From a virus (Duplodnaviria; Heunggongvirae; Uroviricota; Caudoviricetes), in IMG/VR virus record IMGVR_UViG_2690316097_000007: a stretch of 33,161 bases of DNA; one strand, written 5' to 3'. A model generated the notes under the pieces. That model was not told where the DNA came from. It saw only the letters and a program-made list of their open reading frames with translations, and made no database searches. Shown here piece after piece: positions 3,108 through 16,437 of the stretch; position 1 is the stretch's first letter; each line of letters starts with the position of its first letter. A program made the position numbers and the translations under genes.

Positions 3108-3545
3108 TCAGCCAACAAATTTAGCAACAAATACAGCAACCGCCGCTGTGAAAATGGTTGTGCACACTGGCACAATAATGCCACTCCAACGCCACTTCGT
3201 ATTATCATCAACCTTGTCAAACCGCCGATTCATCTCATCCATAATCTTGTCAAAGCGTTTATCCATCGCTTCGGTAAGCTCACCCTTCAGGCTGTTAATG
3301 TCTGATTTGAGCTGCTCTTTCAGGTTAGCTGTATCAGATTTAAGCTCACCTTTCAGATTCGCAATATCGCATTCAAGATCACCTTTCAGATGTGCTATGT
3401 CTGCTTTGAGTTCACCTTTCACCTCACCAACATCGGCTTTAGTTGAGAGGTTTGTAGTGCGTTCAGCAAGCGTCGCAAGGTCGTTTCTTGTTAGCGATAA
3501 ATCACCTTCGAGCCGCTCAATTCGCCTTTCAAGTTTATCTGACAT
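3108..3545 (-). CDS. Tail-anchored coiled-coil membrane protein with five 11-residue repeats (function unknown)
   Basis: Start placed at the internal Met (MSDKLERR...) because GGAGG lies about 5 nt upstream; the track ORF extends to 3662 with a poor RBS. The protein has five hendecad repeats (D-x-x-x-L-K-G-E-L-K-x) and a C-terminal hydrophobic helix (IIVPVCTTIFTAAVAVFVAKFV). AT-rich. Confidence 0.6.
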   Translation of the reverse strand: MSDKLERRIERLEGDLSLTRNDLATLAERTTNLSTKADVGEVKGELKADIAHLKGDLECDIANLKGELKSDTANLKEQLKSDINSLKGELTEAMDKRFDKIMDEMNRRFDKVDDNTKWRWSGIIVPVCTTIFTAAVAVFVAKFVG

Positions 3546-3645
3546 TCCGCCTCCACTACTGCCGCCATCGCCACCATGATAAAGCACATCACGCTCAGAA
3601 TGCGACACACTACCTGCTGAATTACCGAAAAGATTTCTTGCTACA

Positions 3646-4146
3646 TTACCCATTATCACCATCCTGCGCTTTGTCTTTCTCCAACCACTTCAGCACCGCA
3701 GACGTACGATAAAGGCTCAGGTAACCACAATTCAGGCAATGCAGCGTGTAATAAGTTTTGCGCATATCAGGTATGCTCTTAACATCACCCAAAAAAGCAT
3801 AAGATACATAATGCTTTATGTTCTCTTTAATTAACTCACTCTGTTCCTCCAGGGGTAGATTGTTAAAATTTTCTGGTTTCTTATTTTTATCCCAGCAAAG
3901 ATCCATACTTTCTGGAACAGATAATCGCGACGATCCACATGAAGGGCAGACACTGGAGACCCCCTTCTCAGACAAGAAACGGAAGAAGATTTCTGGCGTA
4001 ATCTCCATCAGCCGCTCTTTATGTTTTTTGACACGACTCATCGACTTCTTATTGATTTCATCAGCTTCTTCTTTGCATTTATCTTCTATATATTTCGATA
4101 GTAAATAGTCATATAACTCTTTTTTTGTAGGTTTTTTTATTTCCAT
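3646..4146 (-). CDS. Hypothetical Cys-pair (putative zinc-ribbon) protein, AT-rich cargo gene
   Basis: 166-aa ORF with CPSCG and CLNCG motifs about 70 residues apart and Lys/Glu-rich N-terminus. Its start codon lies 2 nt downstream of the int stop on the same strand, suggesting co-transcription with C-int. Confidence 0.6.
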   Translation of the reverse strand: MEIKKPTKKELYDYLLSKYIEDKCKEEADEINKKSMSRVKKHKERLMEITPEIFFRFLSEKGVSSVCPSCGSSRLSVPESMDLCWDKNKKPENFNNLPLEEQSELIKENIKHYVSYAFLGDVKSIPDMRKTYYTLHCLNCGYLSLYRTSAVLKWLEKDKAQDGDNG

Positions 4147-4148
4147 AG

Positions 4149-5126
4149 TTACATTCCTCCCAAGGGATTAAACCTCACCGCATCCTGCAAGTAATCCGGC
4201 GCAAGATGGGCATAAATCATCGTTGTCTGAATCTTTGCGTGCCCCAGAATTTTCTGGAGCGTCAGAATATTGCCGCCGTTCATCATGAAATGACTGGCGA
4301 AGGTGTGGCGCAGCGCATGAACAGCCTGGCCGTCAGGAACATCAGGTGCGACCGTTTTGATGACATCGCGAACCAATGAATAATCCAGCGTCGGAAACAC
4401 CAGTTTCCCGCCCCGTTTTTTGATCTTTTCAAACAGGCTTTCAGAAATAGGAACGGTACGGTTTTTGCTGTTCTTCGTTTTTGAAAAAGTGATTCGACAA
4501 TGAAGAACACGGCGCTGCTCCAGTGCCGCTACCTCGCCCCATCGCGCCCCGGTCGACAGAAGGATTTCGACGGCCAGCCGTTCATCGGGATTTTCAGCCA
4601 GTGCATCCAGCAACTGAACACATTCAGACTTACTCAGATATCCCATTTCACGCTCGTTAACCTTCATTCCTTTAAGGCCTTGAACGGGGTTATCGTTAAG
4701 AAAATGGCCGGATGAGATGAGTGCGGTAAACATCGCGCTTAACGCCCCAATCTCTCGATTTATGGTGCTGGGCTGTATCCCCTGCTCTATCCTGGACACA
4801 CGTAGCTCGGTGAGCATCGTTGTATTAAGTTTATGCACGCACGGGTCATCCATTGCCTCACTCAAGCGCAGCAATTTAAGGCGCGTGTTATGCCCTGACT
4901 TCATTAGCTGGCCGTGGTATTTCCACCACAAGTCAATAAGCACTGACAGCGGACGGCGATCAATGGAGTTTCCTTTCCACTCATTGTTATGCTGTTGCGC
5001 CAGCACCCACCGCTCATATAAAACTGCATCCGATTTCGTTTTAAATTTTTTGCGAATGCGTTTGCCTTTACGCCCCTCAGGACGCATGTCAAGAAGATAC
5101 CCTCCCGGAATTGATTTTATGCTCAT
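4149..5126 (-). CDS. int: Phage tyrosine integrase (P2-like)
   Basis: C-terminal catalytic region HALRHTFASHF...LGHAKIQTTMIYAHL (R, H-x-x-R and catalytic Tyr). Start placed at internal Met (MSIKSIPGG) giving about 325 aa; the 375-aa track ORF has a non-conserved-looking extension. Lies beside a C-like repressor and divergent cox as in P2. Confidence 0.85.
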   Translation of the reverse strand: MSIKSIPGGYLLDMRPEGRKGKRIRKKFKTKSDAVLYERWVLAQQHNNEWKGNSIDRRPLSVLIDLWWKYHGQLMKSGHNTRLKLLRLSEAMDDPCVHKLNTTMLTELRVSRIEQGIQPSTINREIGALSAMFTALISSGHFLNDNPVQGLKGMKVNEREMGYLSKSECVQLLDALAENPDERLAVEILLSTGARWGEVAALEQRRVLHCRITFSKTKNSKNRTVPISESLFEKIKKRGGKLVFPTLDYSLVRDVIKTVAPDVPDGQAVHALRHTFASHFMMNGGNILTLQKILGHAKIQTTMIYAHLAPDYLQDAVRFNPLGGM

Positions 5127-5175
5127 TCGTGAAGCCCCAGCGTTACAAGACCACCATGCCCCCAGCGTTCCATGA

Positions 5176-5487
5176 TTAGCCGGGCTGTGTGCCAGTCTTG
5201 CGGGATTTTTGAGAAGACGATGTGTTTTCTGGCCCATCAGGGGAGAGAGAAGGACTGATCTGCCCAGCAGCCTCATTTGTTTCGTTACTCATCAACCACG
5301 TAGTGTATTTTTTAAATTCCGGGTGCATTGTGATTTTCAGTAAAACCTCCGTTCCCACACCTCGAATACCAGTCTCGTATTGCTTAACCGTACCAACCGC
5401 AATACCTATTGAATCCGCGAACTTTGCCTGACTAAGCCCCTCAGATTCTCGAATTGCTTTTAGCTTCTTTGATATCTCTATTGACAT
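5176..5487 (-). CDS. C: Immunity repressor (P2 C-like HTH protein)
   Basis: About 104 aa from internal Met (MSIEISKKLKAIRESEGLSQAKFADSIG...), HTH of XRE type, resembles P2 repressor C from memory (FKKYTTWLMSNE vs P2 FTKYTLWFMTNQ). Upstream of int on the same strand, divergent from cox. Confidence 0.75.
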   Translation of the reverse strand: MSIEISKKLKAIRESEGLSQAKFADSIGIAVGTVKQYETGIRGVGTEVLLKITMHPEFKKYTTWLMSNETNEAAGQISPSLSPDGPENTSSSQKSRKTGTQPG

Positions 5488-7921: not shown

Positions 7922-10744
7922 ATGACGGCAGAGTACATCAGGGACTGGCAACAACCGCGCCACGCAGTGGGGCGTGAAGGAACGGGGATCCCCGCTCCTG
8001 AATCCGCGCTTTCCTCCTGGCTGGATGCCCACCGGGCAGAGAACGAGCGCCGCCAGGAAATGGCTGATGCGGCGTTCTCCGCCACGCCACTGGGCAACCT
8101 GATTAATAAAAGCCTGGACGCACAGGAAAAACAGGACAAAACCATCACACTGGCAGGAGACGCCAGAAAACAGGCACGCGGCGCGGTGGATGAAGCCATG
8201 GCCTCGCTGCGCCTGCTGCCGTCCTATCTGCGCGATCCGCTTATTCGCCACCTCTCCTTCCTGCGCAAAAAACAGGAAGCCGATCGCCGGAAAGGCAAAA
8301 AGAGCTGGCAGGCGGAACGCTATGCACGCGGAACCCTGCGCAAAATATTCGAACGTCTGGATCGCACTGACGGACACTGGCTGACACCGGGTTATCGCTC
8401 CCTTGCCGGACGTGAACGCCTGGACGATTTGCTTTACCTGCCGCAACTCAACAAACACCAGATACAGACGCTGGCCACCATGACGGCGGCGATGTTCAGC
8501 AGCACCTTCGAAAAACTCTGCGATGGTTTTGGCGCGACTGATGGCGAGCTGACCATGGATGTAACGCTGAAGGCGTATCAGATGCTGGCCCGCATGGCGT
8601 TACACTTACACGCCATGCCTCCGCATTATGACGCACTGACAACAGACAAAGACCGGAGGCACGAACCGGACACAGAACTGCTGCCGGGCGCAATCCTTCG
8701 CCTGACCTGTGCGGAATGGTGGAAACGCAAACTGTGGCTGTTACGTTGCGAGTGGAGAGAAGAACAACTTCGCGCCGCCTGTCTGGTTTCCAGAAAAACA
8801 TCGCCCTATCTGAGCCAGGACGCGTTAAGCGAGTTTCGCGCACAGCGCGAGAAAACACGCGATTTCCTGAAAAGTTTCATGCTGGAAAATGAAGACGGGT
8901 TCACGATTGATCTCGAGACGGTGTATTACGCGGGAGTAAGTAACCCGGTTCACCGTAAGGCAGAAATGATGGCCACCATGAAGGGGCTGGAACTTCTGGC
9001 CGAAGCCCGTGGCGACAAAGCGGTGTTTCTGACTGTCACCTGCCCGTCAAAATACCACGCCACAACGGAGAACGGTCATCCGAATCCCAAATGGAACGGG
9101 GCCACAATGCGCGACTCCAGCGATTACCTGGTTAACACGTTTTTTGCGACGGTCCGCAAAAAACTGAACCGCGACGGCCTGCGCTGGTATGGCATCCGCA
9201 CGGCGGAGCCTCACCATGACGGCACCGTGCACTGGCATATGATGGTCTTTGCTCATCCGGAAGAAATCGACACCATTGTGTCCCACACCCGCGATATTGC
9301 CATTCAGGAAGATCGTCACGAGCTGGGCGATGACATAACTCCGCGCTTTAAGGCGGAGTATGTAGACGGCTCAAAAGGCACGCCAACCAGCTACATCGCC
9401 ACCTACATCGGGAAAAACCTGGACAGCCGCGCCGTGGATGGCATCGACCCGAAAACGGGCAAGCCACGCGTTGACCACGAAACCGGAAAATCAATGGCCG
9501 AGAGCGTGGAACGCGCCATCGGCTGGGCGCGCCTTCACCGGGTCCGCCAGTTCCAGTTCTTTGGCATCCCCTCCCGCCAGGTATGGCGTGAACTGCGCCG
9601 CCTTGCCAGCCAGATGGCACGCAACCCGGAAGGCCCGCAACGGCTGAAGGATGACGCAATGGATGCGGTTCTTGCCGCCGCTGATGCCGGATGTTTTGCC
9701 ACCTACATAGAGAAACAGGGCGGCGTACTTGTTCCACGCAAAGACTACCTGATTCGCACCGCCTACGACCTCGCCGATGAGCTGAACGATTACGGCGAAC
9801 AGAGCGTACAGATTTACGGGATCTGGTCACCACTCATCGGGGAATCCTCCCGTGTGTGCACGCATCCGGATAACTGGAAGCTGGTAAGACGCAAACCGGA
9901 AGCGGAAGACAGCGCCCGCGAAAATGGTTTTGACCTTCAGGGCGGCCCTGCCGCCCCTTGGACTCGTGGCAATAACTGTCCCCGTGTACAGGAAACGGAC
10001 AACAACGGGACAGAACAGCCGGAAGAACGGCCAGCACCGTGGCCGCAGCTCCCTGACGGCGTTGATGTGGATGAATGGATGCGCTCACTGAAACGGCACG
10101 AACGCCGGGCGCTGATGCGTTCGCTTCGTGACAAACAGGCAAAAAACAGCAGTGATGAAATGCAGAGCTGGACACAGAGCCGCAAACAGCAGCGGCCTTT
10201 GCCTGATAACCACGAATTACTCGCTAAAGAATGGCGGGAGTCTGCTGAATCTCTCGGCCTGCATATCGGTGAACAACAGATGCAGCACCTGTTACGGGGC
10301 GGCAGTCTGTACGTTGACGGCAGCATCATTGCACCGCAGGGATTTGAAATTGTACGCAAACCGGATACCCGCCCGGACAGCCGAATCACGCAGCTCTGGC
10401 AGCGCCTGAGCCGTAATCATGGCGTAAGCAGCACGGAGATCCGCCATAACCCGGTCGCCAGCTATCTGACACAGCTGGGGGCATCAGACCCTGAAGCCGC
10501 CGCACGCCTGGCATCCACACTTCAGCAGGACCAGAACACCATGAAAACACCCGTTACCGTGCTTTCTGACATGCTGCGCGCCATCCGCGACGCAGAGCAC
10601 GCACAGAGAATCAGTGAAACCACTGAACGCGCCCGCCGCAAAGCAGACCTGCTGCGGGGTGGCCTGACCAGTGGAAACAAAAAACAGACAGAAACGGGAC
10701 TCACGAATCCCGTAAATGAGCAAAAAACGCGCAGCGATATATGA
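7922..10744 (+). CDS. A: Rolling-circle replication initiator endonuclease (P2 gpA-like)
   Basis: 940-aa ORF with HUH-type motif (GTVHWHMMVF) and downstream Tyr-containing segment (TSYIATYIGKN) typical of P2 A-type replication proteins. Sits after the early operon as in P2. Longer than P2 A as I recall it (about 760 aa). Confidence 0.85.
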   Translation: MTAEYIRDWQQPRHAVGREGTGIPAPESALSSWLDAHRAENERRQEMADAAFSATPLGNLINKSLDAQEKQDKTITLAGDARKQARGAVDEAMASLRLLPSYLRDPLIRHLSFLRKKQEADRRKGKKSWQAERYARGTLRKIFERLDRTDGHWLTPGYRSLAGRERLDDLLYLPQLNKHQIQTLATMTAAMFSSTFEKLCDGFGATDGELTMDVTLKAYQMLARMALHLHAMPPHYDALTTDKDRRHEPDTELLPGAILRLTCAEWWKRKLWLLRCEWREEQLRAACLVSRKTSPYLSQDALSEFRAQREKTRDFLKSFMLENEDGFTIDLETVYYAGVSNPVHRKAEMMATMKGLELLAEARGDKAVFLTVTCPSKYHATTENGHPNPKWNGATMRDSSDYLVNTFFATVRKKLNRDGLRWYGIRTAEPHHDGTVHWHMMVFAHPEEIDTIVSHTRDIAIQEDRHELGDDITPRFKAEYVDGSKGTPTSYIATYIGKNLDSRAVDGIDPKTGKPRVDHETGKSMAESVERAIGWARLHRVRQFQFFGIPSRQVWRELRRLASQMARNPEGPQRLKDDAMDAVLAAADAGCFATYIEKQGGVLVPRKDYLIRTAYDLADELNDYGEQSVQIYGIWSPLIGESSRVCTHPDNWKLVRRKPEAEDSARENGFDLQGGPAAPWTRGNNCPRVQETDNNGTEQPEERPAPWPQLPDGVDVDEWMRSLKRHERRALMRSLRDKQAKNSSDEMQSWTQSRKQQRPLPDNHELLAKEWRESAESLGLHIGEQQMQHLLRGGSLYVDGSIIAPQGFEIVRKPDTRPDSRITQLWQRLSRNHGVSSTEIRHNPVASYLTQLGASDPEAAARLASTLQQDQNTMKTPVTVLSDMLRAIRDAEHAQRISETTERARRKADLLRGGLTSGNKKQTETGLTNPVNEQKTRSDI

Positions 10745-10789
10745 AGCGCGCACAAAACAGGCAAAAACGGGATTTCAGAATCCCGTAAA
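10690..10789. repeat. Two copies of a 27-bp element with an internal palindrome
   Basis: Copy 1 at 10690-10716 (AGAAACGGGACTCACGAATCCCGTAAA, inside the 3' end of A). Copy 2 at 10763-10789 (AAAAACGGGATTTCAGAATCCCGTAAA, perfect 8-bp stem ACGGGATT/AATCCCGT). On the minus strand each hairpin is followed by a T-rich run. Confidence 0.6.
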
Positions 10790-10820
10790 CGATTAATTAA
10801 TCAACATAAGGAAAAGCGAC

Positions 10821-11780
10821 ATGAAAATTTGTATCGACGACGGCTCCACCAACATCAAGCTGGCATGGACTGAGAACGGCGAACGCCGCAACGCCATCAG
10901 CCCGAACAGCTTCAAGTCGGAATGGTCTGCGCCGTTCGGTGGCATGCAGCCCGCGAACTACATGCTTGATGGCGTGCGCTATGGTTTTGATCCGGTCAGC
11001 GATCGCTTTGTCCAGACAACCGACACGCAATACCAGTACAGCGATGTAAATGTCATTGCCATTCATCACGCGCTGGTCAAATCAGGCATCACGCCACAGG
11101 AGGTGGATGTGGTTGTCCCCCTGCCACTGAGCGAGTATTTCGACACAAACGCACAGCCGGACATGGCCAACATCAACCGCAAAAAAGCGAACGTTATGCG
11201 CCCGGTGGAGTACCAGAACGGCGAAGCATTCACTATCCGTAACGTGCGGGTTATGCCTGAATCCATTCCGGCTGGCTTTAAGGCACTGGCTGACATGAGT
11301 CCGTTTGAATCCCTGCTGATTGTGGATTTGGGCGGAACCACGCTGGATGTGGCAAAGGTTCAGGGGCAACTGGCAGGTATCAGCCAGGTGTTTTGCGATC
11401 CACACGTAGGCGTTTCTCTGATGGCCGATGCCGTACTGTCGGTGATGGCCACTAACGGTATGCGCACCAGTCACCACATCGCCAATACCATTATCGAACA
11501 TCGCCATGATGAAGCCTGGCTGCGCCAGCACATCCACAATGACGCGCATTACGCCAGCCTGATGGCGGTTATTCGTGAAAAGGAAGAAACACTGAAACAA
11601 CGCGTGATCCGCGCGCTGGCGGGTTTTTCGGGTTACGGGCGGGTGATGGTTGTCGGTGGAGGGGCGGAGATTGTGGCACCCGCTATCCGCGAAGCCTGCG
11701 GAGTTAATGCGACTTTCATCGCGGACGGGGTGCCACAGTTTGCTCTGGTTAATGGGCTGTACGCAATGGACAAGGAGTAA
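10821..11780 (+). CDS. parM: ParM/StbA-like actin-family ATPase
   Basis: 319-aa ORF. N-terminal phosphate-1 motif IDDGSTNIKLAW, then YSDVNVIAIHHAL, VMPESIPAG, LIVDLGGTTLD and VGGGAE all align in order with plasmid R1 ParM as I recall it. No search run. Confidence 0.8.
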   Translation: MKICIDDGSTNIKLAWTENGERRNAISPNSFKSEWSAPFGGMQPANYMLDGVRYGFDPVSDRFVQTTDTQYQYSDVNVIAIHHALVKSGITPQEVDVVVPLPLSEYFDTNAQPDMANINRKKANVMRPVEYQNGEAFTIRNVRVMPESIPAGFKALADMSPFESLLIVDLGGTTLDVAKVQGQLAGISQVFCDPHVGVSLMADAVLSVMATNGMRTSHHIANTIIEHRHDEAWLRQHIHNDAHYASLMAVIREKEETLKQRVIRALAGFSGYGRVMVVGGGAEIVAPAIREACGVNATFIADGVPQFALVNGLYAMDKE

Positions 11781-11784
11781 ACCA

Positions 11785-12096
11785 ATGACGACACCAACCA
11801 GACGGATAAGTTTCTATCTGAAGCCTGCGGCCGTCAAGAACGAAAGCGAAGCATGCGCCTGGCTGGGCAGCCTTACACCAGAAGCCCGCAAAAGCGGCCA
11901 ACGCGTGGCTTTTCTGGCCGGGCTGGCACTTCTGAAAATGAATCCAGCAGAGGCTTACCGACTGGCTGCATGGGCTGACGATGAGGCGTTATCGGTGACA
12001 CAAACCAGGACAGAACGCCCCGTGCCACAGCCAGTACCAACCGCACAGATAACCAGTCAGATAGCAGGGAATATCCGGGCATTATTTCCTGAATGA
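11785..12096 (+). CDS. parR: ParR-like small DNA-binding adaptor protein
   Basis: About 103 aa from ATG at 11785 (MTTPTRRISFYLKP...). Resembles R1 ParR at the N-terminus (RRxIxFxLxP ... AxLAGLAL) and at the C-terminal LFPE. Immediately downstream of parM as in parMR operons. Confidence 0.6.
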   Translation: MTTPTRRISFYLKPAAVKNESEACAWLGSLTPEARKSGQRVAFLAGLALLKMNPAEAYRLAAWADDEALSVTQTRTERPVPQPVPTAQITSQIAGNIRALFPE

Positions 12097-12156
12097 CGAA
12101 TTTGACGGCTTTTAATTTTATCGGGGTGCACTGTCGCCCCGCACGAGGAAAACACG

Positions 12157-12681
12157 ATGAAAAAATACGAATACATGCTAATGAAAGAAGCACTGCGGGC
12201 TGGTCTGGCTCCCTGTCCTGTATCCGTAGAAGCTGTTGTTGGGAACACGATTTTCCGAACGCTGCGAAATCGCGTATCCGTGAAGATGGTTCACCAACCA
12301 CCCAAATCTACCAGCATGATCTATCTGCCGCTGCCCGAGGCTATCAAACTTATGCGTTCGCTGAAATTTGCGATTTGGATGCAGACACAAATCAACAAAG
12401 CGGTGCAAAACACCTTCGTTAAGAGACTAATACCGGAGCTTGCTGCCAGATGTGCAAAATGTACCAGACCCGCACTTCAATTTGATCTGTCATTGATTCA
12501 ACAAGCTACGGAGGCAGAACTGTACCGCCTGTCACCTATCCGTGATGCTCACACGGAAGCATCAGAAATGTTCCGGCTCATGTTTCAATTTAATTTTGCC
12601 GTTCGACGCACACGCGTTCAGGTCAATCGCATGATGCAGGAGCAGGAAGAGTTAACACAGTACAAAGGGGGCAGCCAGTGA
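12157..12681 (+). CDS. Hypothetical protein (hotspot cargo)
   Basis: 174-aa ORF with a GAGG-type RBS; no recognisable motif. Stop overlaps the next start. Confidence 0.55.
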   Translation: MKKYEYMLMKEALRAGLAPCPVSVEAVVGNTIFRTLRNRVSVKMVHQPPKSTSMIYLPLPEAIKLMRSLKFAIWMQTQINKAVQNTFVKRLIPELAARCAKCTRPALQFDLSLIQQATEAELYRLSPIRDAHTEASEMFRLMFQFNFAVRRTRVQVNRMMQEQEELTQYKGGSQ

Positions 12682-12917
12682 GTAATTCAGCACGACTACA
12701 GCTTGGTTTTTCACCGCTATCAAAAACCATCGTATTGGCAAAAATGCGTGACTTAGGAGACGGAACAAAACGCCGCGTAGGAAATGATCGCGGTCGCGAT
12801 GTAACCAACGAGGCCGCTCAACTCGTTTGGCATCTAGTCATGGCAGAAGGCGGTGAAATTAATTGGGAGCTGGATGATGGTTCTCGTATGATTTTGAGGG
12901 CCGAGAAGAGTAAATAG
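12678..12917 (+). CDS. Hypothetical protein (hotspot cargo)
   Basis: 79-aa ORF with GTG start overlapping the upstream stop (GTGA), suggesting translational coupling. Confidence 0.45.
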   Translation: MSNSARLQLGFSPLSKTIVLAKMRDLGDGTKRRVGNDRGRDVTNEAAQLVWHLVMAEGGEINWELDDGSRMILRAEKSK

Positions 12918-12931
12918 CTCAAGGGGGATTA

Positions 12932-13117
12932 ATGCTAAATGATGATGAAGAAGAGCTGCTTATGCAGGAATGGTCGCTCGGTGATTATGATAATGGTGAA
13001 AATGGGTGCCCGCATTGTGGCCGTTATCGTTTATGTATCTGCCAGAATGGAAAACACAGATGTGAAAAGTGCAATTGGTCTCCGGAACTTAATGACTACG
13101 TGCCGATCGAGTGGTAG
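12932..13117 (+). CDS. Small Cys-rich (putative zinc-ribbon) protein
   Basis: 61-aa ORF with strong RBS (AGGGGG). Motifs CPHCG...CICQ...HRCEKC give 7 Cys/His ligand candidates; acidic N-terminus. Confidence 0.5.
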   Translation: MLNDDEEELLMQEWSLGDYDNGENGCPHCGRYRLCICQNGKHRCEKCNWSPELNDYVPIEW

Positions 13118-13157
13118 AGGTAAGTCACACTAGGTGTTTTTTAGTTGATTTTATAAA

Positions 13158-13184
13158 TGCACAATAGTGCACAAATTTGCACAA
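13158..13184. repeat. Three direct TGCACAA repeats at 10-bp phasing
   Basis: TGCACAA at 13158, 13168 and 13178, followed by a T7 run, just downstream of the last cargo ORF in the non-coding region before the portal gene. Confidence 0.6.
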
Positions 13185-13608
13185 TTTTTTTGAACGACTT
13201 TTTGCCCTTCCGGCCCGCGTGGCGGCTGGATCCGTCAAGGATCCGTGCATGCACAAAAAAACGCGTTTTTTCTGCGCGCAGGTGACGGGGGAACAGCCCG
13301 CGTTTCAGGGGGTAAATAGCATTCCCTGAACGATGTCGCAGAGATACAACAGAATGGCTGTATTTCTCACGCTGAGCGTGAAAAAGACGTGAGGGCTTTT
13401 GATTTGATGGGGTGAAAGGTAAGGCCGTCAAAATCGCACTGAGACGGCGAGAATATGCAGTCAACGAGGTGGGATTGCGTAAGAGTCTGACTGTCGATGA
13501 TGGCAATCAGCAGGAAAGCGTCGTGAAATTATCTGACTGATACAGGAGCTGGAGAGTCGGGGCATAAATTTTTTATGCCCCGGCGAAGCAGCAGACAAGC
13601 GAAGCGCG

Positions 13609-14655
13609 TCAGGATGTGGGCTGGGTGTCTAACAGTGCGTAAGGGTTAAAGCGGATCACCTCTTCGCCAAGCCAGTCATTGATGTGCTTCATGGCCTCCA
13701 TGACGGGCATCAGCTCGTTAATTGCGTAAACCCGCGCGGCCTTCTCCACATCACCAAACGCACTTTTTTCGCCCGGCATCGCCCCCATCAGTTGCGGCGG
13801 AACGCGGTGCGCAGCCAGCACATCATCACGGGATGCCGCCTTAACATTCATGAACTCATCCTTTGCGGTGATCTGCTGGAACGGCAAAATTTGCACCCCC
13901 TCTTTGCCCCCGTTGGGCGCATGAATGAGCACGTTTTTAAACGCACCACCACCACGTGCCCCCTGTAGCGTTTCTTTCAGGGAGTCCATGCTTTCGCGGT
14001 TTACCTGCGCTGCACCGATGTAGATGATGCACCCGGCGTGGGATCCGTTGTCGTAGTACAGTTTTCTGAACATGTCCGCCGAATGAGAAAGGCTGGCCGA
14101 GAGTAATGCGCCAAGATATTCCGGCATGCCGTAGATTTCCTGGTTAATATCCGGATTCATCAGGTGGCACACTTTGCCAGGACGAAACTGAAACGCATCC
14201 TTGCCATCCTGCACATACCACCATGATTCAAGATCGCTTCCGCGTCGCATGTATTTCGCCAGGGCGTGCCGTAATTTAAGCGGTTCGCCGAGCATATTGC
14301 TCCGAAGCTCAAGGAATGCGTTACCGAACACAAACCAGTCCAGCGCCAGCGCCGAGAAATCCTGCCGGGAAAGCAGCGGGTGCGGAATATAGCAGCCGAG
14401 CAATACATTGCGCTTAAAGTAAAGCGCAGACTGATGCCAGGACGTTTGCCGGGCAGCTCTTGCCAGACCGTACCAGTCCACCGGGGTTTCATACCACCGC
14501 CCGTTATCAGCACAGTACATATTGTCCAGCAGGTCATGCCCGGTCAGGCGGTAAGGACCATCAAATGTGAATGCACTGAGCGACGATTCTTTCCTGAGCG
14601 CATCAGCGAGATCAATGCGTGAACTCATGCGCACTTTTTTATTTTTTCTGCTCAT
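13609..14655 (-). CDS. Q: Portal protein (P2 gpQ-like)
   Basis: 348-aa ORF, same size as P2 gpQ, directly downstream of and overlapping the terminase large-subunit gene on the minus strand. Confidence 0.85.
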   Translation of the reverse strand: MSRKNKKVRMSSRIDLADALRKESSLSAFTFDGPYRLTGHDLLDNMYCADNGRWYETPVDWYGLARAARQTSWHQSALYFKRNVLLGCYIPHPLLSRQDFSALALDWFVFGNAFLELRSNMLGEPLKLRHALAKYMRRGSDLESWWYVQDGKDAFQFRPGKVCHLMNPDINQEIYGMPEYLGALLSASLSHSADMFRKLYYDNGSHAGCIIYIGAAQVNRESMDSLKETLQGARGGGAFKNVLIHAPNGGKEGVQILPFQQITAKDEFMNVKAASRDDVLAAHRVPPQLMGAMPGEKSAFGDVEKAARVYAINELMPVMEAMKHINDWLGEEVIRFNPYALLDTQPTS

Positions 14656-16437
14656 CAGAACTCCATAACCGTGAAACGCTCGTTTTCTCCTTCGCCGCCA
14701 ATCGGTTCGTTAATGACAGCAAGCATGGTTGCCCACGCAAGGTCGCCGTGGCTGATCCCCCTCGCGCGGTCCGTTTCGTAAGTGATAAAACCGCCCGGTG
14801 TTTTCACCTTACGCACGGCGTTAAAGGCCGCAACCAGCTCGCGTTCGGCGCGATCGTATTCCCACCGCCCGGCACGCATTATTTGCAGCATTTTCAGTAC
14901 CAGCGACCGTTTTGATGACAGCGTGAAGGTGTAAGGGATGGCGGCGGGAAAAAACCGTTTCACTATCTGATAGACGGCATCCCCGTGCCCTCCCGTCGCA
15001 TCAATGCCGATGTGTTCCACGTTGTAGCGATACGTGAACTCTTCAATAACTCTGGCCTGCTCTTCAAATTCCAGCCCCTGAACGCGTCGCGTCTCCACCG
15101 TTCTGAAACGACCACCAGGAACAGCCGGAGGAACCACCACGGACACAGCGCCGCTGTCGCCGTTACCACTGCTGCCGTTTGCGTCATACCCAATCCATAC
15201 CGGACGATTCCCCATCGGGCGGGGGGCAAAGGGTTTCCAGTCTTTCCAGTCGTCGTATCCGTCAACACCGCAGCCAATCAGGATATTCAGGTTAAATGCC
15301 GATTCCCCTTCGCGGACAAACTCACACATATAGAGATTGCGGAACTCGTCTTCGGTGTTTTCATCACGAATTTCATCAATATCGGTGTGTTTCCAGCCGT
15401 GATTAACCACATCTTCCAGCGTGACAATTTGCCGCCACGTCCGGTCAGGGCAGATAAGCCCGTTATGCAGCGTTTTCCAGTCCACAGAAAAACGCTGGCG
15501 TTTATGCGCGGCCTTTTTCTCGTTCCAGCGGTCGCCGTTCCAGTAGGCGTATGCCTCGTGCGTTTCGGTGGATGGCGTGGAGAAGCAGGTGCGCCGCAGT
15601 CCGCTGAGGGTTGCCATAGCGCCAGCCACCTTGCGCAGTTCAGCAAAGCGACTGACCCAGAAAAATTCATCAAAATAAAAATTGCCCGTGTAAGATTGCG
15701 CCGTCGCAGCAGAAGTGCCGAGAAAATGCATCTCTGCGCCGTTGGAGAGGATGATTTTATCGCCCCCTTTCAGCTCCACATCGACTTCAGCCGCGGCCTT
15801 CTGAATAATGCTTTTAAACTGGAANNNNNNNNNNNNNNNNNNNNNNNNNNNNNNNNNNNNNNNNNNNNNNNNNNNNNNNNNNNNNNNNNNNNNNNNNNNN
15901 NNNNNNNNNNNNNNNNNNNNNNNNNNNNNNNNNNNNNNNNNNNNNNNNNNNNNNNNNNNNNNNNNNNNNNNNNNNNNNNNNNNNNNNNNNNNNNNNNNNN
16001 NNNNNNNNNNNNNNNNNNNNNNNNNNNNNNNNNNNNNNNNNNNNNNNNNNNNNNNNNNNNNNNNNNNNNNNNNNNNNNNNNNNNNCGGCAATCTGTTCCG
16101 GCGTGAAATGATTTTTGAGTTTTTTCGCCCGGCCTTTCTTTCCTGTGGCCGTCGCATCCGGCTGGCCATCATGCAGTTTTTTAAGCTGCCGGGTCAGCAG
16201 GTCTATTTCCTTAAAGTCACCACCTGTTTTATTCTGTTTTTCAGTAAGCTGGATGAGGCGCGCATCGATGGACTGCGTGACACGCTGCACGGGTGGCGTT
16301 TCATCCCACTGGTCGCGTTTTTTCCACGCATAAATCGTGTTCGGGTTTATTCCCATCAGACGTGATATTTCTGCGGGCGGATAACCCTGCCAGTAAAGTT
16401 GCCGCGCACGCTGGCGCACAAAAGCGTCCTGAATCAT
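14655..16437 (-). CDS. P: Terminase large (ATPase) subunit (P2 gpP-like), interrupted by an N-run
   Basis: N-terminus MIQDAFVRQRARQLYWQGYPPAEISRLMGINPNTIYAWKKRDQWDE is the HTH-containing start typical of P2 gpP. The C-terminal part continues below the gap to 14655 in a different frame. Span is about 593 codons, close to the size of P2 gpP. Confidence 0.8.
15825..16085. other. Run of 261 N (assembly gap or masked sequence) inside the terminase gene
   Basis: Directly visible. The coding frames on the two sides differ by one position, so the gap length is approximate. Confidence 0.95.

Follow-up and report, generated by a model that had tools for sequence, protein, structure and literature searches.

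Introduction

Type II partition, as described for the ParMRC system of plasmid R1 (StbA/StbB of R100), combines an actin-fold ATPase with intact nucleotide-binding and catalytic motifs, a small adaptor gene (parR) immediately 3' of the ATPase gene (parM) and a centromere (parC) of repeated ParR sites beside the operon. In such systems ParM builds dynamic filaments to which ParR attaches by its C-terminus, and the module resides on, and stabilises, an autonomous low-copy replicon. Here we describe a parM-parR pair (parMR) in a 33,161-nucleotide stretch of viral DNA of the class Caudoviricetes (IMG/VR record IMGVR_UViG_2690316097_000007; this whole stretch is called the window below), where the two genes lie in an integrated P2-like prophage between replication gene A, which encodes gpA, and the portal gene, the homologue of gpQ.

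Comparable systems are known from other phages. AlpA, AlpC and alpS of the integrated Corynebacterium glutamicum prophage CGP3 are induced early and are needed for efficient phage DNA replication (Donovan 2015, PMC4446434). StbA and StbB are carried by the phage-plasmid D6, a 91-kb plasmid prophage that has an additional ParA-like gene. In phage P2 itself the gpA-to-portal interval is occupied by orf91, tin and old. Rousset et al. (2022) analysed this gpA-gpQ interval in 18,150 E. coli P2-like loci, showed that it houses many defence systems, and reported the partition system together with an episome hypothesis, placing it under non-defence functions (entries in their Table S5A). Pfeifer et al. 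(2021) flagged phage P88 in a phage-plasmid screen, which credited it with plasmid-like replication genes that are not named, and proposed for it "episomal and integrative states". The partition system of P88-like phages and the idea of an episome are therefore already known, and PGAP (Prokaryotic Genome Annotation Pipeline), PHROGs and the phage records all annotate parMR as partition proteins. What these genes do in an integrating phage is so far a matter of conjecture in print. We add that parMR is a backbone feature linked to gpA, that a candidate centromere of two palindromes lies beside it, that database evidence speaks against a standing plasmid, and that a short linker may explain the mosaic of the genes that follow.

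An earlier note, made from the letters of this DNA alone, had described parM, parR and three downstream genes (here orf174, orf79 and orf61, named for their length in amino acids) as one five-gene cassette in the gpA-to-portal hotspot. It called a partition system in an integrated prophage unexpected, and proposed either an episome or a role in exclusion or defence.

Sequence features of ParM and ParR

All five co-directional open reading frames (ORFs) of the earlier note, and the flanking gpA and minus-strand portal genes, were found where it had placed them (Table 1). The parM product aligned with ParM of plasmid R1 (PDB 1mwk) over residues 2-316 (E 5.9e-92), which is essentially its full length. 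The motifs DDGSTNIK, MPESIPAG, DLGGTTLD and GGGAE were identical to those of R1 ParM, the phosphate-binding and adenosine motifs and the equivalents of R1 E148 and D170 among them. By its sequence the protein is predicted to be an actin-fold ATPase whose nucleotide-binding and catalytic motifs are intact. The earlier identification as a ParM/StbA-type ATPase is borne out by the Pfam domains and by this end-to-end alignment, and the nucleotide-binding residues, which the note had said might prove to be lacking, are present.

The parR gene starts 4 nt past the parM stop, and its identification as ParR was likewise upheld by its match to Plasmid_stab_B, the Pfam family of R1 ParR. A search of ParR against the PDB gave no match. 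ParR homologues from the relatives were built of three parts. A strand of the RRISFYLKP type and helices made up the N-terminus, a Pro-rich linker that varied came next, and the C-terminus was an N-x3-LFP tail that was invariant or nearly so in all relatives aligned. This is the layout that would be expected for a centromere-binding adaptor with a ParM-docking peptide, and R1 ParR shares both the DNA-binding N-terminus and the conserved C-terminal tail. Both protein genes of the partition system are thus present and intact.

Two ParR alleles, about 54% identical, were seen among phages whose ParM was 98-99% identical (an ST131 prophage, L006, and an E. albertii prophage, L007, against the window). 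Both alleles kept the N-terminal RRISFYLKP strand and a C-terminal N-x3-(L/F)FP tail, and differed in the linker and the second half. Many E. coli matches ended within parR at window position ~11839 or ~11930, which marks recombination breakpoints.

Conservation of gpA-ParM-ParR as a backbone

The window is a P88-like prophage (genus Xuanwuvirus, Peduoviridae, P2 family), with identity and synteny to P88 over gpA-parM-parR and over cos-portal-terminase. Two blocks, from window 10690 to ~12094 and ~13158-13600, were 96-97% identical to P88 and to about a dozen relatives, and the ~1 kb that separates them was not conserved. Gene A forms the upstream anchor of the first block.

At the protein level ParM was 95-99% identical in 14 of 14 P88-like phage records (99.4% to P88 ParM), and the order gpA-ParM-ParR was held in every one of them. 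parM-parR DNA was found in 1,307 of the 5,426 complete E. coli genomes (24%), and other taxa bearing parMR were Shigella, Salmonella, Citrobacter and E. albertii. ParM identity was at least 91% within the P88-like clade and at most 62% in the next relatives (54-62%), which came from Hafnia, Plesiomonas, Serratia and Enterobacter and all lay within P2-like prophages. There the order was gpA, none to two small genes, ParM, ParR, variable genes (HicAB, KAP NTPase, Ogr and unknowns), portal and terminase. The contexts of these diverged ParM proteins came from protein database and contig look-ups; a single-query contig scan with ParM reached only three close relatives. The only phage outside the P88-like clade with a related ParM was the plasmid prophage D6, where the protein is 47.5% identical, is annotated "similar to phage P88 StbA protein" and is followed by a ParR homologue of the same architecture.

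The ratio of non-synonymous to synonymous substitution rates (dN/dS) for parM was 0.05-0.15 in the more diverged pairs, compared with 0.14-0.5 for the gpA C-terminus. Purifying selection on parM is strong, and tighter than on the gpA C-terminus.

Similarity between the P88-like relatives stopped at the parR stop codon. Gene content differed between near-identical prophages only over 12097-13157, while parM and parR were invariant. Because a hybrid prophage in E. albertii NBRC 107761 keeps gpA-parMR while its late genes have been replaced, parMR can be said to travel with the replication module. In this hybrid (L007) a P88-like gpA and parMR (ParM 99%) are joined to a different portal (344 amino acids) and terminase (595 amino acids), with an Ogr-like zinc-finger gene between parMR and this late set. 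We conclude that in P88-like (Xuanwuvirus) phages gpA-ParM-ParR belongs to the conserved backbone and not to the cargo.

The proposal of one five-gene cassette did not survive the comparison across prophages: parM and parR do stay together, and with gpA, but the three downstream genes move separately from them, as two modules. The placement of the locus within a recognised hotspot was right. The module is hardly unexpected, being present in 24% of complete E. coli genomes, routinely annotated, and in print with an episome hypothesis. The earlier note had named a widely annotated P2-family core feature of known function as the finding that would undo it; the distribution and annotation agree with that description, but "known function" does not.

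Against the partition genes of P88 and other Xuanwuvirus members, the window had the same genes in the same position with the same flanks, at 96-99% identity. The only difference lay in the cargo after parR, which in P88 is a ClpX-type zinc-finger protein with small ORFs and in the window is orf174, a DUF7446 protein (orf79) and orf61.

A 226-kb contig labelled Vagococcus sp. WN89Y (L008), a Gram-positive, carried a 97% identical ParM with a P88-like gpA and portal. It is probably a contamination or a mislabelled assembly.

A candidate centromere of two palindromes

Two copies of a 42-nt direct repeat, each with a 20-bp palindrome (ACGGGACTCACGAATCCCGT and ACGGGATTTCAGAATCCCGT), lie 73 bp apart at the junction of gene A and parM. 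The first copy is within the last 30 codons of gene A, and the second palindrome ends 34 nt 5' of the parM ATG. The palindrome consensus ACGGGA-N8-TCCCGT matched the window twice, where chance would give 0.02 matches. In P88-like loci the palindrome arms were conserved and the spacer varied. A Plesiomonas prophage repeated this layout, its two copies lying 72 bp from each other and sharing the core CGGGA..CCCG. Enterobacter and Serratia had repeats of the TTCCCA/TGGGAA type directly upstream of parM, and D6 had TCTCA iterons in the equivalent position instead of CGGGA palindromes. The repeat motif covaried with the N-terminal strand of ParR, RRIS occurring with CGGGA, RKIS with TGGGAA/TTCCCA, and KKVM with TCTCA (D6).

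Since the motif covaries with the ParR strand and since P2, which has gpA and no ParMR, lacks the motif near gpA and its origin, we assign the palindromes to parMR and not to the replication origin. The two palindromes are a likely candidate for parC. Two other functions were considered for them and rejected. As origin elements of gpA they are contradicted by P2, which is nicked 427 nt inside gene A and lacks the motif in the vicinity of A, and by Enterobacter, where the repeats stay with parM despite two extra genes that separate parM from gpA. As terminators they are terminator-like on the minus strand only, where no gene runs into them.

The gpA of the window is 940 amino acids long (7922-10744), compared with 761 in P2 (28034-30319). 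The first palindrome lies within the final ~30 codons of the longer gene, where it encodes T-G-L-T-N-P-V.

The order repeats-parM-parR is that of R1 ParMRC. The R1 system belongs to a theta-replicating plasmid, whereas that of the window sits in an integrating phage beside a rolling-circle initiator. The centromere of the window would consist of two 20-bp palindromes, one of them in a coding region and with no promoter evident between them. The ParR subtype of the window was found on no genuine plasmid in PLSDB.

Transcription of parMR

No plus-strand terminator was found between gene A and parM. A consensus scan of 10300-13700 gave only one promoter-like site, inside orf79 just before orf61, which is fewer than chance gives; there was none ahead of the cargo as a whole and none between the two palindromes. 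Since parMR lies on the same strand directly 3' of gene A, and neither a terminator nor a recognisable promoter separates the two, parMR is probably co-transcribed with the early lytic operon after infection or induction. The simplest reading is an early operon lengthened by parMR, and probably by the cargo as well, with expression that would fall in the phase when the phage replicates outside the chromosome. Just past the cargo, a hairpin followed by a T-run at 13167 is the probable end of this rightward transcription unit.

Two exchangeable modules after parR

In the window the segment between parR and the cos-proximal block holds three genes. orf174 is a near-orphan, with no match in Pfam, PHROGs, PADLOC, NCBIfam or the PDB. 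Its relatives formed 8 clusters among 5.8e9 proteins in a word-indexed search, and 3 among 1.84e9 representatives in an exhaustive HMMER search. Its AlphaFold2 (AF2) model was unusable, with a predicted local distance difference test (pLDDT) score of 49.5. The DUF7446 family, to which orf79 belongs, comprised 370 clusters in Enterobacterales; the AF2 model of orf79 had a pLDDT of 63.7, and Foldseek against the PDB found no fold match (best E 0.36). The third gene, orf61, has the Cys pattern CxxC-x5-CxC-x6-CxxC, a weak, sub-threshold match to Zn_ribbon (E 0.005) and, by tblastn against phages, only weak matches in Lactococcus phages.

The three genes did not move together. All three occurred together in none of the complete E. 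coli genomes. orf174 was accompanied by an Ea22-like gene in about 30 of these genomes, and in another lineage orf79 and orf61 came after a ClpX zinc-finger gene and a 75-amino-acid ORF. In both types of arrangement in which it was seen, orf61 followed DUF7446. The exact arrangement of the window was common in Shigella sonnei and E. coli O28ac, with each exact protein on 640-910 contigs (orf174 on 820, orf61 on 643), and the full five-gene order was seen in several 5-Mb chromosomes. Other relatives carried as alternative cargo a ClpX-type zinc-finger protein, Ead/Ea22-like proteins, a YafO toxin, or an opposite-strand DUF4760 protein with a 280-amino-acid protein.

The GTG start of orf79 overlaps the TGA stop of orf174 (GTGA), and from this arrangement orf79 is predicted to be translationally coupled to whichever gene precedes it. 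The junction is a conserved linker of ~25 nt (AAAGGAGGCAAcCAGTGAGyAA) with a Shine-Dalgarno (SD) sequence; it is common to the two parental arrangements, which overlap there. In P2-like, P1-like and Yersinia phages the same linker stood at the end of four upstream genes that are unrelated to one another (junctions L001, L004, L017 and L018). It is the probable recombination joint for module shuffling, and resembles a joint at which phages exchange small early genes in general. On this evidence the cargo reads as two independent swappable modules, orf174 and DUF7446 with orf61, and not as partners of ParM. The linker was also seen at the head of an Ea22-like gene.

DUF7446 genes follow directly after Ead/Ea22-like genes in P1-like plasmids, with the same SD-GTGA junction, and Ea22-like genes fill this slot in other P88-like prophages. 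The exo-xis genes, with which Ea22 is grouped, are early-expressed modulators of the lysis-lysogeny decision in lambdoid phages. By analogy, the cargo probably consists of small early-expressed accessory proteins from the Ea22/exo-xis-type gene pool of lambdoid and P1-like phages. However, no window protein matched the Ead_Ea22 domain (PF13935), and orf79 was unrelated in sequence to the 196-amino-acid Ea22-like protein that occupies the slot in strain EA2 (BLASTP E 7.5). The association of DUF7446 with Ea22 is a neighbourhood hint, not homology.

Proposed role of ParMRC in P88-like phages

We propose that ParMRC acts on the extrachromosomal circles of the phage after infection or induction, serving a transient phase and no permanent plasmid, with the cargo as a separate matter. 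We hold this tentatively, at slightly less than an even chance of being correct, from the sequence and by analogy with known systems. The replication/early region would carry a complete type II module, made up of two putative ParR-binding palindromes and of ParM and ParR as assigned by homology. After infection or induction parMR would be transcribed with the early lytic operon while gpA produces circular phage genomes. On every circle ParR dimers would occupy the palindromes and cap filaments of ParM-ATP, and the growing filaments would push the circles apart. Replicating genomes might in this way be spread or positioned, and/or copies delivered to both daughters, before integration or lysis. 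The true hotspot would then begin past the parR stop and hold the two swappable modules joined at the SD-GTGA linker.

The nearest functional parallel is AlpAC of CGP3, which also belongs to an integrated prophage and pairs an actin-like ATPase with a co-transcribed DNA-binding adaptor that has sites upstream of the operon (PMC4446434). It differs in actin-like family, adaptor and host phylum, so the proposed likeness is one of functional analogy. A bolder version, which we put forward as possible but would sooner doubt than assume, is that a virus-owned cytoskeleton of a Gram-negative integrating phage separates or positions the circles made by gpA, raising burst size or lysogenisation, with the two palindromes as a minimal two-site centromere. 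If this is true, the AlpAC paradigm, based on a single Corynebacterium prophage, would also cover elements carried by about one in four E. coli genomes, and strong purifying selection on a "plasmid" system in an integrating phage would be explained.

Several points weigh against the proposed transient role. Only two candidate ParR sites were found in the window, and the Hafnia relative was without convincing repeats. The parC of R1 has far more, with ten iterons of 11 bp arranged as two groups of five that flank a promoter. The consensus scan could have missed a weak or non-sigma-70 promoter driving parMR in the lysogen. Expression timing, the binding of ParR to the palindromes and any phenotype are inferred from sequence, and the benefit of a segregation machine in a short lytic cycle is not obvious. 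The "early accessory" label of the cargo is drawn from strand, spacing and travelling companions, for proteins without an assignable family or fold. In addition, one circular record deposited as a plasmid, NZ_CP148288.1 (L003; 34,461 bp), is a whole P88-like phage, integrase included.

With parMR so common and evidently functional, settling whether it serves lytic replication, the establishment of lysogeny or an occasional plasmid would clarify the biology of the P2 family, and would show whether screens for phage-plasmids are too ready to include elements like P88. It would further help surveys of the gpA-gpQ interval to tell backbone genes from true cargo. The candidate centromere of two palindromes and the SD-GTGA linker add modestly to what is known and lend themselves to direct tests; the window is otherwise not exceptional.

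Alternative readings: episome, defence and neutral carriage

The alternative that fares best is a facultative phage-plasmid, in which P88-like phages alternate between an integrated state and a stable episome that ParMRC partitions, as in D6. Phage-plasmids exist as extrachromosomal replicons, have a replication initiator of plasmid type and mostly do without a chromosomal integrase. The idea was put forward by Pfeifer et al. (2021) and Rousset et al. (2022); it accounts for the complete plasmid-type partition module, and the nearest phage-borne relative outside the clade is indeed the StbA of a plasmid prophage. However, of the 1,455 places where parMR was found in complete E. coli genomes, 1,453 were chromosomal and 2 were on plasmids, and the window itself is integrated, with host nlpC, btuD, btuE and btuC at 30-2915. 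A 1.3-kb attP probe taken from the 34.5-kb circular record found no intact junction in the 5,426 complete E. coli genomes; 591 of 591 chromosomal matches broke at the att core. The circular record, which speaks for an episome, has its origin within 1 nt of the att break of the chromosomal copies, as would fit an assembly-graph node of excised, induced phage. A tyrosine integrase is kept, and the replication gene is a P2-type gpA, with no RepB-type initiator among the ORFs scanned, unlike KS14, the proven P2-like plasmid prophage, which has RepB instead of gpA, plus ParA. A repressed episome would also not replicate, because gene A lies in the early operon that P2 immunity represses. The databases argue against a standing plasmid state for P88-like phages, and we regard a facultative phage-plasmid as unlikely.

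The transient role also has to be set against exclusion or defence, the other proposal of the earlier note. In a reading of this kind ParM, with ParR and/or orf174, orf79 and orf61, would exclude superinfecting phages or plasmids, as P2 tin and old do. The location gives this some colour: the interval is known for its defence systems (Rousset et al., 2022), the three genes of the window lie in the same hotspot as tin/old and vary between close relatives, and in some relatives the neighbouring cargo slot holds genes for a toxin-antitoxin system or a KAP NTPase. The profile search for defence systems that the note had proposed came back empty, none of the five proteins matching a PADLOC-DB 2.0 family at E <= 0.1. 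ParMR behaves as backbone and is invariant while the three genes swap independently, so the five cannot form an obligate unit, and ParM retains full similarity to a bona fide segregation ATPase. The cargo runs on the strand of the early operon with no promoter of its own ahead of it, the lone promoter-like site being that inside orf79, whereas P2 tin/old and the ST131-type cargo lie on the opposite strand and tin/old has a mapped transcript start of its own. Rousset et al. (2022) had likewise not counted the partition system as defence. We consider a defence role very improbable. Scarcely credible is a neutral or decaying passenger, by which an ancestor would have picked up a plasmid partition cassette a single time and its descendants would now carry it without function: the function of parMR is so far conjecture, and P2 and phage 186 do without it, but the low dN/dS of parM, its wholly intact catalytic motifs, its near-identity across the 14 P88-like records, the synteny kept at 54-62% ParM identity across five genera and the all but invariant ParR tail speak against this.

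The opposite-strand pair of the ST131 P88-like prophage (L006, 2994-4373), a DUF4760 protein and a 280-amino-acid unknown in an arrangement like that of P2 tin/old, could by analogy be an uncharacterised defence candidate.

Other features of the window

The coordinates of all features are collected in Table 1. The cos-proximal label of the block before the portal gene was given by analogy with P2, where cos is 168 nt beyond the portal stop; a search with the P2 cos 19-mer gave a best window match with 6 mismatches, and the 19-mer is not conserved here.

Table 1. Features of the window, with strand and supporting matches (aa, amino acids).
Feature	Position	Strand	Remarks
Tyrosine integrase	4149-5276		
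Replication gene A, 940-aa rolling-circle initiator	7922..10744	+	Pfam Phage_GPA E 6.6e-131; phrog_91 'nicking at origin of replication'
42-nt direct repeat, copy 1	10678..10719	.	palindrome ACGGGACTCACGAATCCCGT (10694-10713); candidate ParR site, parC half 1
42-nt direct repeat, copy 2	10751..10792	.	palindrome ACGGGATTTCAGAATCCCGT (10767-10786); candidate parC half 2/operator
parM, actin-like segregation ATPase, 319 aa	10821..11780	+	Pfam StbA_N E 4.9e-81; ParM C-terminal domain E 1.3e-68
parR, StbB-type adaptor, 103 aa	11785..12096	+	Pfam Plasmid_stab_B E 2e-23 (model 1-71 of 72); phrog_2515 E 2.3e-56
Variable cargo segment, parR stop to cos-proximal block	12097..13157	.	conserved blocks end ~12094, resume ~13158
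orf174, cargo module 1, near-orphan	12157..12681	+	
Junction linker	12657..12685	+	AAAGGGGGCAGCCAGTGAGTAA; Shine-Dalgarno and GTG start overlapping upstream TGA stop
orf79, DUF7446 protein, cargo module 2a	12678..12917	+	Pfam DUF7446 E 1e-16; phrog_1578
orf61, six-Cys putative zinc-ribbon protein, cargo module 2b	12932..13117	+	phrog_24897 E 2.6e-46, full length
Conserved non-coding cos-proximal block, cargo to portal gene	13158..13608	.	97% conserved in all P88-like records
Terminator-like hairpin and T-run	13167..13195	+	GTGCACAAATTTGCAC AATTTTTTTG; just past cargo, inside conserved block
Hairpin after portal gene	13558-13582		within cos-proximal block
Portal protein gene (gpQ homologue), right anchor of interval	13609..14655	-	phrog_68 E 4.2e-153; Pfam Phage_portal

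A run of N at 15825-16085 (masked or unsequenced) breaks the gene for the terminase large subunit, which is not readable through it. Between host btuC and the integrase, a low-GC patch (0.42-0.44) at 3108-4146 holds two overlapping minus-strand ORFs, which encode a 184-amino-acid coiled-coil protein and a 166-amino-acid protein with a weak zinc-ribbon match. They matched only PHROGs of unknown function and, weakly, coiled-coil-type PADLOC families (LmuB/ZorA segments, E about 1e-4), and the patch looks like a second cargo site (att-int).

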